Origin: an uncultured virus (IMG/VR IMGVR_UViG_2724679368_000003)
Lineage: Duplodnaviria; Heunggongvirae; Uroviricota; Caudoviricetes
IMG/VR virus record: IMGVR_UViG_2724679368_000003
Length of the DNA: 64,000 nucleotides
Direction: 5' to 3' (one strand)
The position numbers and the translations under genes are program-made. The notes below the pieces were generated by a model. It made no database searches. It was not told the DNA's origin and saw nothing but the letters and a program-made list of their open reading frames with translations. Positions 25,028-26,760 of the stretch are shown here, piece after piece. Positions within the stretch are counted from its first letter, which is position 1, and each line of letters opens with the position of its first letter.

Positions 25028-25056
25028 TTGACCATTTGCGAACTTTGCTCTATTCT
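25028..25056 (+). promoter_or_regulatory. Sigma70-like promoter of the retron operon
   Basis: TTGACC-17 nt-TATTCT. Confidence 0.65.
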
Positions 25057-25066
25057 AAATTTAACG

Positions 25067-25524
25067 TTACTGAAGAGAGAATCCGCCGGTTAGACCTGAG
25101 TAGTGATATTTACTACTTGTGGAGGATTTAGATCCTCTGTTTTTTTGCGCTGCCCTTGTGCTGTCCACGGTGCTGCTACGAAGCTTCCCATGGCATGTTG
25201 TAGTGTATAGGCGTACTGCGTACTGATCGTGTTGGCGACATCACGATCAGATTGAATAGGGTTCACTGCCAAAAACTCTCATTTCCTGATTATGGCGACC
25301 TAACAGCAATTCTGCTGTTAGTTATCAGGAATAAAATTTATGAAAAATAGTAACGCGTTTTGGCAGGCACTTAAGAAGAATGACACTAAAAAGAAGAAGC
25401 GGAAGCAAAAGCAGAAGCTTTGGAATATTGTAAAAGTACTGGTGAGAGCCGGTCTGTGTGTTTACAAACTCCTTAACTTCTTCTTTGGTGATAATGATGC
25501 TTAAGTGTGCCCTACCTTCAGTAA
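25067..25524 (+). ncRNA. Putative retron msr-msd RNA enclosing the small ORF
   Basis: Terminal inverted repeat TTACTGAAG (25067-75)/CTTCAGTAA (25516-24); hairpins at 25099-25117, 25122-25137, 25223-25250 and 25283-25331; exact boundaries uncertain. Confidence 0.6.
25340..25504 (+). CDS. 54-aa basic/hydrophobic small protein, putative retron effector; absent from the ORF track
   Basis: AGGA RBS; MKNSNAFWQALKKNDTKKKKRKQKQKLWNIVKVLVRAGLCVYKLLNFFFGDNDA. Confidence 0.7.
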   Translation: MKNSNAFWQALKKNDTKKKKRKQKQKLWNIVKVLVRAGLCVYKLLNFFFGDNDA

Positions 25525-25535
25525 AGAGGTGATTT

Positions 25536-25853
25536 ATGATTAACCGAGCATTAAAAACCATCAGGCTATTCCATAACATAAAACAATCTGAACTTGCGGA
25601 TAAGCTATGTATTTCAAAATCATACTTATCAGAGCTTGAATCAGGAAAAAAAACAGTCTCATTTGATATATTAGAAAAATATTCTAATAATTTTGACATT
25701 CCAGTTTCATCACTGGTTTTTTTTGCTGAACGAATTAATGAACCGGGTAAAGATACAATTCCTGAAAAATTCAAAACTGTTTTTGCAGATAAAATACTTA
25801 AGATAATGGAATGGAGCATAGCGAGAGATGGCGAAAAAGAAAGGGAGAATTAA
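25536..25853 (+). CDS. XRE-family HTH protein (retron accessory)
   Basis: IKQSELADKLCISKSYLSELESGKK; GAGGT RBS; overlaps the RT start. Confidence 0.85.
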   Translation: MINRALKTIRLFHNIKQSELADKLCISKSYLSELESGKKTVSFDILEKYSNNFDIPVSSLVFFAERINEPGKDTIPEKFKTVFADKILKIMEWSIARDGEKEREN

Positions 25854-26760
25854 TACTAAAGGCAAGTCTTATAGTATTAATGATAGCGCTTTATTCAATA
25901 TTCAGAGTAAAAACAAGCTTGCGGAAGTATTACTGACAAACTTAGATCACATAAAAAGCTTATTATCTAATGACAATTATATTGTTTTTGATAATACTAA
26001 TGAAGATGGTAAAAAGCGGACTATTCAAACCCCATCAGATAAACTTAATGTTGTGCATACAAGAATAGCGAGTTTACTATGCCGTATAACTCAACCAGAA
26101 TATGTCCATTCAGGAATAAAAAATAAATCTAATGTATCCAATGCCAGAAAACATGTAGGTACACACCCTGTATTAACGTCTGATATACGCTCATTTTTTC
26201 CTTCGACATCTAAGCGCCAAGTCTTCAATTTTTTTAATAGGAAATTGAAGTGCGCTGCTGATGTATCAGACCTCATGGCGGAATTGTGTACGTATGCGAA
26301 CCATATACCTACAGGCAGTCGAATAAGTATGCCTTTAGCATTCTGGGCAAACTATGACATGTTTAATGAAATGAACATAATTTCAAATAAATTAAATATA
26401 ACAATGACTGTTTATGTTGATGATATTACTTTTTCTGGCAATGCTGTTAATAGACTGTTTCTTCATAAATGCAAGAGAATAGTGGAAAAGAATGGCCACG
26501 TTTTACATCCAAAGAAAACAGCCCTCTACTCTGCTAAAGAGCCTAAGACCATTACAGGTGTTATTGTTCATGAAAATGAAATTAAAGTAAGAAATTTACA
26601 TTACAAGAAAATTTATTTTGATTTAGATGCGTGGAAGAAAACTGACGACGCCATAGAAAAAGAAAACTTAAAAAACAAGGTTCTTGGTCGAATGCATTCT
26701 CTTTCTACTATTAATGAAAAATTCAAAGATAAAGCACGAAGCTTTCGGTCCATTGATTAG
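25828..26760 (+). CDS. Retron-type reverse transcriptase
   Basis: KRTIQTP, NARKH (NAxxH), DIRSFFPS, PTGSRIS, YVDD, ITG (VTG-like). Confidence 0.9.
   Translation: MAKKKGRINTKGKSYSINDSALFNIQSKNKLAEVLLTNLDHIKSLLSNDNYIVFDNTNEDGKKRTIQTPSDKLNVVHTRIASLLCRITQPEYVHSGIKNKSNVSNARKHVGTHPVLTSDIRSFFPSTSKRQVFNFFNRKLKCAADVSDLMAELCTYANHIPTGSRISMPLAFWANYDMFNEMNIISNKLNITMTVYVDDITFSGNAVNRLFLHKCKRIVEKNGHVLHPKKTALYSAKEPKTITGVIVHENEIKVRNLHYKKIYFDLDAWKKTDDAIEKENLKNKVLGRMHSLSTINEKFKDKARSFRSID

Follow-up and report, generated by a model that had tools for sequence, protein, structure and literature searches.

An AT-rich cassette at 24,941-26,860 of the window (the whole stretch of viral DNA analysed, 64,000 nucleotides) is an intact Type VI retron, comprising a structured RNA, the gene of a presumed 54-residue toxin, a DNA-binding regulator and a reverse transcriptase (RT). 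It sits between the P2 genes S and V and is swappable, self-promoted cargo of a P2-like Yersinia prophage. On balance, we favour the view that it is a complete retron of the Retron-Vpa2 kind that protects the lysogen by abortive infection from this S-V position.

Type VI retrons with a hidden small-protein toxin were already described in two preprints (October 2025 and April 2026), and the locus therefore adds to a known class. The earlier note on this DNA had called the class little-studied, which does not hold now that these preprints dissect it; its phrase 'probably uncharacterised' remains apt for this particular locus, but not for the class. What the locus contributes is modest, usable material. 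It supplies a phage-borne, apparently Vpa2-like Type VI retron from Yersinia; an inducible phage that carries it, vB_YenM_56.17, is available as an isolate, and in sister phages the slot is either vacant or occupied by other cargo. Comparison of 25 loci backs the proposed riboregulator, in which both repeat copies co-vary. The locus also yields a candidate operator of the HTH protein and so touches on that protein's function in Type VI, about which the two preprints disagree (repressor of reverse transcription versus protein antitoxin).

Gene content and phage carrier

The RT gene (25828..26760, 310 aa) overlaps the gene of a Cro/C1-type HTH protein (25536..25853, 105 aa) by 26 nt; these two genes, the small-protein (SP) gene, the flanking genes S and V, the promoter and the RNA elements described below all lie on the plus strand. 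RT, HTH and small protein had together been taken for a Type VI retron, and the PADLOC profiles agree. The RT matches RT_VI at 4.1e-104 over 278 of 279 profile positions (next best, RT_III-A at 1.5e-40; Pfam RVT_1, 2.4e-7), which would place it in the Type VI RT group (clade 3 of Mestre 2020), and the HTH protein matches HTH_VI at 6e-36 (Pfam HTH_3, 1.9e-12). The RT carries the retron signatures NAxxH of region X (NARKH, residues 105-109, 26140-26154), YxDD (YVDD, 196-199, 26413-26424) and, in region Y, a VTG-like ITG (242-244, 26551-26559); residues N105, A106, H109, V197, D198, D199, T243 and G244 show no variation among 31 relatives. All seven PDB sequence matches of the RT are retron RTs. 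Among them is the classical retron Ec86/Eco1 (PDB 7v9u; 3e-17), with which the locus shares the RT fold family, msr-like hairpins, a variable msd-like stem and a flanking inverted repeat. A group II intron, DGR, Abi/UG or CRISPR-associated RT was rejected because the PADLOC families matched (best 25 of 38) and the seven PDB entries are all retron RTs.

The solved relatives of the HTH protein by sequence include PezA, SinR, CylR2, C.BclI and HipB. At 105 aa, and with its gene upstream of and overlapping that of the RT, it falls within the 91-110 aa Cro/C1 proteins of Type VI as described by Mestre et al. 2020 (PMC7736814), whose systems also share with the locus an RT with NAxxH and VTG and a small auxiliary protein. 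Their small-protein clusters are of 75-79 aa, however, and the SP here has 54. Every part that the earlier note had described (ORFs, motifs and flanks, including the XRE HTH and the overlapping RT with its three motifs) was found in its place, and its view of an intact retron fits the three open ORFs and the intact catalytic and retron motifs.

The placement in the P2 S-V slot, also proposed earlier, is borne out by Pfam. On the left are gpR and gpS (24089-24990), the latter being the tail completion protein (24541..24990; Phage_tail_S, 1.9e-33), and on the right is the baseplate spike gpV (26861..27502; Phage_spike, 2.2e-26; Phage_base_V, 1.4e-18). The last ~17 codons of gpS are AT-rich and part of a near-identical cassette that is also carried by vB_YenM_56.17, a phage isolated from a Y. 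enterocolitica strain. Identity to this phage climbs from about 24941 to 99.8% over the cassette (1916/1920), whereas the phage backbones around it are only 90-91% identical. The carrier prophage in the window lacks head genes. These observations suggest that one cassette hops between diverged P2-like backbones at a fixed slot and persists in a head-less prophage. Relatives are found in a wide range of chromosomal settings and have no fixed link to P2.

In P2 itself, orf30 presumably occupies this S-V slot. The name orf30 is absent from Rousset et al. 2022 (PMC9122126), whose defence hotspot of P2-like phages is flanked by gpA and gpQ and adjoins cos. A retron as accessory cargo of a P2-like phage is common to their hotspots and to our locus, whereas the position differs (gpA-gpQ there, S-V here).

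In public RNA runs the element is represented by one 151-nt contig (25334-25484) from a freshwater metatranscriptome and one 190-nt contig (25489-25678) from a run whose RNA status is a guess; two raw-read RNA runs that carry this same species label did not contain it.

The small protein and its leader RNA

The SP gene (25340..25504, 54 aa) lies between the structured RNA and the HTH gene, as in Type VI retrons. Its product has 11 K/R among the first 26 residues, followed by a hydrophobic amphipathic stretch, and an N-terminal extension is impossible because an in-frame stop precedes the start codon (25319-21). The earlier description of this ORF as un-called needs qualifying: GenBank OM046627.1 (vB_YenM_56.17) annotates it as hypothetical protein UNA05921.1. 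A word-based protein search with the SP returned two clusters only, both from Yersinia, and the family became visible only through the loci of relatives. Among 12,389 six-frame ORFs, the SP profile has 31 matches, each of them in the same place ahead of the HTH gene, and it reaches Vibrio loci (L014, 9e-4). The family alignment comprises 29 sequences, and the ORF is conserved here in relatives.

The SP is presumed to be the toxic effector. This role, already suggested by the earlier note, is argued by analogy, the same-position small proteins having been shown to be the toxin in both Retron-Vpa2 (bioRxiv 10.1101/2025.10.22.683967) and Retron-Sen3. The protein is predicted to form a single helix (residues 3-50, mean pLDDT 76.9). 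The earlier note's idea of a membrane-active toxin finds no support. The hydrophobic stretch of the protein, with a maximal 19-residue Kyte-Doolittle mean of 1.52 and three K/R residues, reads as falling short of a usual transmembrane segment; the main text of the Sen3 preprint makes no mention of a membrane.

The leader, described earlier as about 270 nt and hairpin-rich, spans 283 nt between the -10 and the ATG. The predicted hybrid RNA, which joins the ncRNA to the SP coding sequence, would be about 470-480 nt long (25057..25535), and its architecture matches that of the Vpa2 hyRNA. The RNA of 25057-25545 folds at -148 kcal/mol (z = -4.04), with none of 100 shuffles as good, into three arms and an outer inverted repeat. 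This a1/a2-like repeat pairs TTACTGAAG (25067..25075) at 9/9 positions with CTTCAGTAA (25516..25524), which lies past the stop codon of the SP gene and ahead of the ribosome site of the HTH gene. Its conservation in relatives is indistinguishable from chance (7.18 matched, 6.72 shuffled and 7.06 other-locus).

Alignment of 20 leaders with MAFFT and RNAalifold recovered only three helices (17 pairs) because the hairpins were misaligned, and covariance models replaced it for the analysis of covariation. The resulting alignments across 25 loci are fitted to the model structure and so favour it, and the counts of paired cells and compensatory changes that follow are to be read accordingly. In the 5' domain, two msr-like hairpins (25098-25118 and 25121-25138; together 25098..25138) were found by the covariance model R3 in 19 of the 25 loci; the single-sequence model had found 7, and one iteration brought the rest. 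The paired fraction of cells is 96.2%, and compensatory changes occur in 11 of 16 pairs. A U-run after the second hairpin scores terminator-like, which we count against the favoured reading. There follows a long imperfect stem (25146..25207; MFE helices), which varies among relatives to the point of being unalignable and which, by analogy with Vpa2, is a candidate for the msd stem, the template of reverse transcription.

The 3' domain was found in all 25 loci, with 94.1% of cells paired and compensatory changes in 28 of 30 pairs; none of 500 shuffles was as good, and slid controls were 37-47% paired. It includes a conserved hairpin, H4 (25223..25250; helix 1, compensatory in 9/9 pairs), whose loop carries the first copy of a direct repeat, TGGCGAC (25233-25239). 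Downstream, CTGCCAAAA (25266..25274) pairs with SP codons 7-9, TTTTGGCAG (25358-25366, Phe-Trp-Gln), and this helix is kept with compensatory changes (9.09 matched against 6.36 shuffled and 6.82 other-locus, n = 23). Within the riboregulator arm (25279..25343; inner hairpin, 25301-25320), the Shine-Dalgarno of the SP gene, AGGA (25327-30), is buried in the stem 25283-90/25324-31 and the SP ATG in the stem 25279-82/25340-43; the internal loop of the arm holds the second TGGCGAC (25293-25299). Helices 3 and 4 of this arm are compensatory in 8/8 and 9/9 pairs, and RNAalifold recovered the outer stem independently. The two 7-nt copies switch between GCGA and GTGA together in 23 of 23 loci. A further helix at the node, AGGG/CCCT, is indistinguishable from shuffles (6.59 vs 6.41); it is nonetheless the best helix in several loci.

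The locus thus has a structured ncRNA upstream of the SP gene with covariation, in alignments fitted to the model, in line with the hairpin-rich leader of the earlier note. By the account of the Sen3 preprint, Type VI still lacked any known structured ncRNA at the time of Mestre et al. 2020. An Rfam scan of 24500-27500 returned chance-level matches only (E of 1 or more) and no family.

A candidate operator at the promoter

The own promoter proposed for the operon corresponds to a sigma-70-like site in the promoter scan (25028..25056), with -35 TTGACC (25028-33), -10 TATTCT (25051-56) and a spacer of 17. Promoter-like sites are not enriched in the region (7 found against 7.6 expected by chance), but the place of this one is conserved in relatives. 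Five nucleotides upstream of the -35 is a palindrome, O1, TTCGCTACCAGCGAA (25008..25022, TTCGC-N5-GCGAA; no strand assigned). The 64-kb window has a single copy of it, as does each locus. Of 31 entries, 18 carry the exact sequence and 22 carry it with no more than one mismatch, every time at the promoter. The -35 also forms the left half of a degenerate second site, O2 (25028-25042, TTGAC-N5-GCGAA), spaced +20/+21 from O1; this arrangement is seen in the window and in 9 or more of the 20 distinct loci that bear O1.

O1 co-occurs with one recognition-helix motif of the HTH protein, S[KN]S[YF]LSE, being present in 18/18 loci with the motif and in 0/8 without it. Because of this perfect co-occurrence, we infer that O1 is likely to be an operator bound by the HTH protein. 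Such arrangements are familiar: C proteins, the controllers of restriction-modification systems, and the antitoxins HipB and PezA autoregulate from operators at their own promoters. The HTH protein here resembles these operator-binding Cro/C1 regulators by its match to PADLOC Control_protein (3.8e-8) and to C.BclI, HipB and PezA in the PDB; its locus has two tandem candidate sites 20 bp apart, one of them overlapping the -35. We give even chances to the further proposal that, in a large branch of Type VI, the HTH protein also serves as a classical operator-binding autorepressor through O1/O2. If so, autorepression would add a layer of transcriptional control that sets the dose of the hybrid RNA. 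The main texts of the Vpa2 and Sen3 preprints mention no operator, autoregulation or promoter palindrome, and O1/O2 is thus a point of difference from Retron-Vpa2 as described there.

Branch placement and proposed working

Compared with the descriptions of Vpa2 and Sen3, the locus appears to belong to a Vpa2-like branch of Type VI, away from the Sen3/cl2075 branch; the assignment is based on SP length, the reach of the SP profile to Vibrio and RT identities. With Retron-Vpa2 of Vibrio parahaemolyticus, as described by Zhang et al. (bioRxiv 10.1101/2025.10.22.683967), it shares the order ncRNA, small protein, HTH, RT; an SP of about 55 aa (55 in Vpa2) without extension and with a hydrophobic C-terminal helix; a three-armed hybrid RNA of about 470 nt; an SP ribosome site and start codon within stems; 7-nt direct repeats (here TGGCGAC) in the msd loop and the riboregulator loop; and an outer inverted repeat resembling a1/a2. 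It differs in being carried by a P2-like prophage, in being known from sequence alone and in the SP N-terminus, which is of the FWQALK type here and of the DQQ type in Vibrio loci. Its RT is 48-49% identical to V. parahaemolyticus RTs, any of which may or may not be that of Vpa2.

The best RT match from outside Yersinia has 53-55% identity, and the relatives come from Vibrio and marine gammaproteobacteria. The Sen3 preprint gives ~63% identity between the Sen3 and Mestre-578 RTs; membership of either lineage would lead one to expect an RT at that level, and none was among our RT search matches. It follows from this and from the 54-aa SP without extension that, by sequence, Yersinia has two distinct Type VI retron lineages, of which the locus is the second. 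Nor is it Retron-Eco12 at the megablast level, since the cassette found no match at that level in E. coli complete genomes.

The working that we favour, a Vpa2-like one, takes its steps from those shown for Vpa2 (bioRxiv 10.1101/2025.10.22.683967). The promoter at 25028-25056 would give one hybrid RNA that carries both the msr/msd-like template and the SP coding sequence. In an uninfected cell, the SP ribosome site and start codon would stay buried in the conserved stem 25279-25343, while RT, HTH protein and RNA would form a complex in which the HTH protein holds reverse transcription down. A phage that brings recombination or RecBCD-inhibiting proteins would cause msDNA to accumulate. The msDNA copy of the H4 loop, being complementary to TGGCGAC, could pair with the second copy in the riboregulator loop; the stem would open, the SP would be translated and the cell would be arrested or killed. 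In our own addition to these steps, the HTH protein would also bind the tandem O1/O2 over the -35 and autoregulate the operon. In this scheme msDNA is scarce until triggered and then activates translation of the toxin, as described for Vpa2, whereas in classical retrons it is abundant and acts as the antitoxin.

A working like that of Sen3 is possible but doubtful. Single-stranded DNA and SP would then be made constitutively, the HTH protein would bind and neutralise the SP, and loss of RecBCD during infection would free it. As described, Retron-Sen3 has the same Type VI layout of SP, HTH and RT, an SP gene embedded in structured RNA with a structured coding region, a sequestered SP ribosome site and, as with cl2075, Enterobacterales hosts. 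Its preprint links the amphipathic C-terminus of the SP to HTH binding, and the SP here ends in a strongly amphipathic helix (muH 0.5-0.58). Since, in addition, the relatives of the HTH protein include the antitoxins PezA and HipB, it may have a role as a protein-level antitoxin. Against a Sen3-like working, the cl2075 proteins are of 75-79 aa, with a ~25-aa N-terminal extension (79 aa in Sen3), and the shorter SP here admits none; the RT affinities point to Vibrio and marine gammaproteobacteria; and the co-variation of the 7-nt repeat agrees with the riboregulator proposed for Vpa2.

It is improbable that the cassette serves as an addiction or stabilisation module, with the SP as toxin and the HTH protein and RNA as antidote, or as a prophage regulator, and not in anti-phage defence. 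It does occupy a cargo slot of a prophage, has passed from one phage backbone to another and is intact in a carrier without head genes; however, Vpa2, Eco12 and Sen3 are all described as defending against phages, and the relatives in many chromosomal contexts are not bound to P2. Least credible of all is a decayed element that has stopped making msDNA or toxin: the carrier prophage is defective and the transcription evidence unclear (two single contigs in public RNA libraries), but the ORFs and motifs are intact, the copy differs from that of vB_YenM_56.17 at 2 positions in 1753 nt and the SP sequence is present on 311 contigs.

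Gene content and class of the retron

The region at 25028-26760 contains the parts that an earlier note had listed, as an ORF list, Pfam and a promoter scan returned three plus-strand ORFs and a sigma-70-like site. The ORFs encode a 54-aa small protein (SP; 25340-25504), a 105-aa helix-turn-helix protein (HTH; 25536-25853; Pfam HTH_3, 1.9e-12) and a 310-aa reverse transcriptase (RT; 25828-26760; Pfam RVT_1, 2.4e-7), the last two overlapping by 26 nt. The residues of the RT motifs NARKH, YVDD and ITG do not vary when the protein is aligned with 30 relatives. Its proposed identity as a retron RT, and the assignment to type VI, were borne out by PADLOC profiles (RT_VI, 4.1e-104, with RT_III-A second at 1.5e-40; HTH_VI, 6e-36) and by the PDB chains matching it by sequence, 7/7 of which are retron RTs. 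The SP ORF, described earlier as un-called, is real but already annotated, as a hypothetical protein, in Yersinia phage vB_YenM_56.17 (OM046627.1; hereafter phage 56.17), where the RT is labelled 'retron-type RNA-directed DNA polymerase'. A term search found neither 'retron' nor 'reverse transcriptase' in the main text of the vB_YenM_56.17 paper (PMC9224151).

The class can no longer be called little-studied, having been described in two preprints, to which the name Retron-Vpa2 is confined in a full-text literature search. In the account of Zhang et al. (bioRxiv 10.1101/2025.10.22.683967), the Retron-Vpa2 operon runs ncRNA, SP, HTH, RT, the toxin is SP, and a single ~470-nt 'hybrid RNA' comprises the template and the SP coding sequence. 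Stems hold the SP ribosome site and start codon, SP translation requires msDNA, and msDNA is scarce before phage recombination proteins arrive. Garcia-Rodriguez et al. (bioRxiv 10.64898/2026.04.27.721009), working on Retron-Sen3 (cl2075 lineage), describe constitutive ssDNA and SP, post-translational neutralization of SP by HTH, and loss of RecBCD activity as the trigger; they give SP lengths of 79 aa for Sen3 and 55 aa for Vpa2, cl2075 proteins having an N-terminal extension of ~25 aa. The SP studied here has 54 aa against 55 aa in Vpa2, and the in-frame stop codon at 25319-21 rules out an N-terminal extension of any kind. Outside Yersinia, the RTs closest to the window RT share 53–55% identity with it, and those of V. 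parahaemolyticus 48–49%. On SP lengths, the in-frame stop and RT identities, the cassette appears to be a Vpa2-like Type VI retron, likened to Vpa2 itself by description, and separate from the cl2075 retron that Yersinia is already known to carry.

Conservation and properties of the small protein

Because a word-based protein search with SP gave only two clusters, both from Yersinia, we fetched 80 loci around RT relatives and listed the small ORFs preceding each HTH gene. Twelve of these ORFs were made into a profile, which was run against 12,389 six-frame ORFs of at least 25 aa from the 80 loci and the window. Thirty-one ORFs scored at E < 10, a number that takes in the window, an identical Yersinia aldovae contig and one pair of identical loci. 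Every one of the 31 is on the RT strand and ends ~290–370 nt before the RT match; the small ORF, whose non-conservation had been named as refuting, is thus conserved upstream of the RT. The alignment comprises 29 distinct proteins of 45–55 aa. A short motif at the N-terminus is FWQALK-like, or DQQ-like in Vibrio and some others; the proteins also have in common a basic stretch, a Trp and a hydrophobic helix, and most of them an acidic tail. A purine-rich stretch occupies the expected ribosome-site position before each of these ORFs.

AlphaFold2, given the 29-sequence alignment, predicted a single helix over residues 3-50 (mean pLDDT 76.9, best in 21-50). By composition, the first 26 residues contain 11 K/R and have a net charge of +10, the hydrophobic moment over residues 27-49, which include three K/R, is 0.5–0.58, and the highest 19-residue Kyte-Doolittle mean is 1.52. 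In these properties SP resembles an amphipathic helix more than a classical transmembrane segment. The earlier interpretation is supported apart from the term 'membrane-active', which is still a guess because Zhang et al. state that the mechanism of SP toxicity is not known.

Leader RNA, direct repeat and candidate operator

RNA from 25057-25545 folds at -148 kcal/mol (z = -4.04), with 0/100 shuffles as good. In the predicted fold three arms meet at a node, and a perfect 9-bp inverted repeat (25067-75 with 25516-24) closes the structure and brackets the SP gene. The first arm is msr/msd-like, the second sequesters both the Shine-Dalgarno of SP (25283-90 with 25324-31) and its ATG (25279-82 with 25340-43), and the third is the SP coding arm. 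A covariance model of the 3′ domain (25216-25345), made from the window sequence alone, matched over its full length in 25 loci, each time ending at the SP start. In the covariance alignments, which are fitted to the model and so favour the structure, 94.1% of 3′-domain cells pair, compared with 37–47% in slid controls, and 28 of 30 pairs have compensatory changes; 0/500 shuffles reach the observed scores. The 5′ domain, two hairpins, was present in 19 of the 25 loci after one model iteration (96.2% of cells pair; 11/16 pairs compensatory). The ribosome-site stem also emerged from an unfitted MAFFT/RNAalifold analysis, in which 7/7 of its pairs have compensatory changes.

Within the leader, CTGCCAAAA pairs with codons 7-9 of SP (TTTTGGCAG, Phe-Trp-Gln, 25358-25366), and this helix is kept by compensatory changes (mean score 9.09 versus 6.36 for shuffled sequences and 6.82 for SP of other loci; n = 23). 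Since the most conserved SP residues double as a strand of a conserved leader helix, the same nine bases are under both protein and RNA constraint. A helix-score test did not demonstrate conservation in relatives of the outer inverted repeat or the node helix. At 25119-25148, the second msr-like hairpin runs into seven consecutive T, and the site is scored as intrinsic-terminator-like; L003, the locus of a close relative, has no T-run at the matching place. The run might attenuate the hybrid RNA in the window copy. Public RNA libraries yielded no usable evidence on cassette expression.

Zhang et al. describe 7-nt direct repeats in Retron-Vpa2, one in an msd loop and the other in the riboregulator loop; in their proposed model, the former, as copied into msDNA, base-pairs with the latter and frees the ribosome site. 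Here TGGCGAC occurs at 25233-39, in the loop of hairpin 25223-50, and again at 25293-99, in an internal loop of the ribosome-site arm. On average over 25 loci, the two loops have 6.2 nt in common, versus 4.05 nt for mismatched loci. The core GCGA/GTGA switches jointly in 23/23 loci in which both cores are recognizable (17 GCGA, 6 GTGA, 0 mixed), a count reflecting few independent switch events because the six GTGA loci are probably few lineages. We regard a Vpa2-like mechanism as reasonably probable and the most probable one. The main rival, Sen3-like control at the protein level, in which HTH would neutralize SP, seems rather unlikely.

HTH also matches restriction-modification controller proteins (PADLOC) and the antitoxin-repressors HipB and PezA (PDB). 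The sigma-70-like site, TTGACC-17-TATTCT, lies at 25028-25056. The scan that found this proposed own promoter proves nothing alone, because such sites are as frequent in shuffles (7 found, 7.6 expected), but its position is conserved: in relatives, a TTGAC-type hexamer has the same place relative to a conserved palindrome. That palindrome, O1 (TTCGC-N5-GCGAA, 25008-22), lies 5 nt upstream of the -35. The 64-kb window has a single copy, as does each locus, always at the promoter; it is exact in 18/31 entries and has at most one mismatch in 22/31. A degenerate site, O2 (TTGAC-N5-GCGAA, 25028-42), takes in the -35 itself and stands at +20/+21 from O1 in the window and in at least 9 of 20 distinct O1-bearing loci. 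The HTH motif S[KN]S[YF]LSE, within the presumed recognition helix, is found in 18/18 distinct palindrome loci and 0/8 loci without the palindrome (Fisher 6.4e-7, kinship between loci ignored). O1, newly pointed out here, is likely to be an operator, which HTH would bind; 'operator', 'autoreg' and 'palindrom' are absent from the main texts of both preprints.

Cargo slot and carrier prophage

The cassette, flanked by P2 gpR, gpS and gpV (Pfam), is AT-rich (GC 0.29–0.44 versus 0.49–0.62 in the flanks). A 1.8-kb stretch of it is 99.8% identical to phage 56.17; in full, 1916/1920 positions agree (99.8%), and the 1753 nt between O1 and the RT stop differ at 2 positions, whereas the left and right flanks are 91.2% and 90.1% identical. 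Given this disparity, the cassette has moved recently between diverged backbones. The S–V junction itself, judged by its contents in related phages, is a cargo slot. It is empty (73 bp) in sister phage vB_YenM_201.16, and in sister phages vB_YenM_06.16-2 and 31.17 it holds a minus-strand ORF of 353/354 aa (1446-2507 and 1363-2427 in their fetched loci, L083 and L084) that has no match in Pfam or PADLOC searches and may itself be cargo. The known P2 defence hotspot described by Rousset et al. (2022, PMC9122126) lies elsewhere, between gpA and gpQ.

Compared with phage 56.17, the retron-carrying prophage (window context 11800-43600) is without a head and packaging module: at 21990-23268, ~1.3 kb replaces phage coordinates 8340-17335, which hold cos-side genes, Q, P, O, N, M, L, X, holin and the 5′ part of lysozyme. 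Early genes, gpA, lysB and all tail genes are kept. The lysozyme ORF (23141-23575) matches its Pfam profile only from position 32/125. Between gpA and this truncated gene, at the position of the gpA–gpQ hotspot, the replacement segment carries a minus-strand 306-aa ORF (22199-23119) with a Ser-Thr repeat run and hydrophobic stretches and no match in Pfam or PADLOC. Directly downstream lies a second, divergent P2-like prophage (~44000-64000; 63–72% identity to phage 56.17) with integrase-like, gpA-like, Q, P, N, M and R/S segments, so the head-less element is in tandem with a head-gene-bearing one. A 136-nt tail-fibre assembly segment (phage 56.17 24569-24704) has four full matches and a fifth over 90 nt within 30548-35489, at 72–76% identity. 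The phage 56.17 record annotates a DNA invertase near this segment, and together these findings suggest that the tail-fibre region is multi-cassette and possibly invertible.
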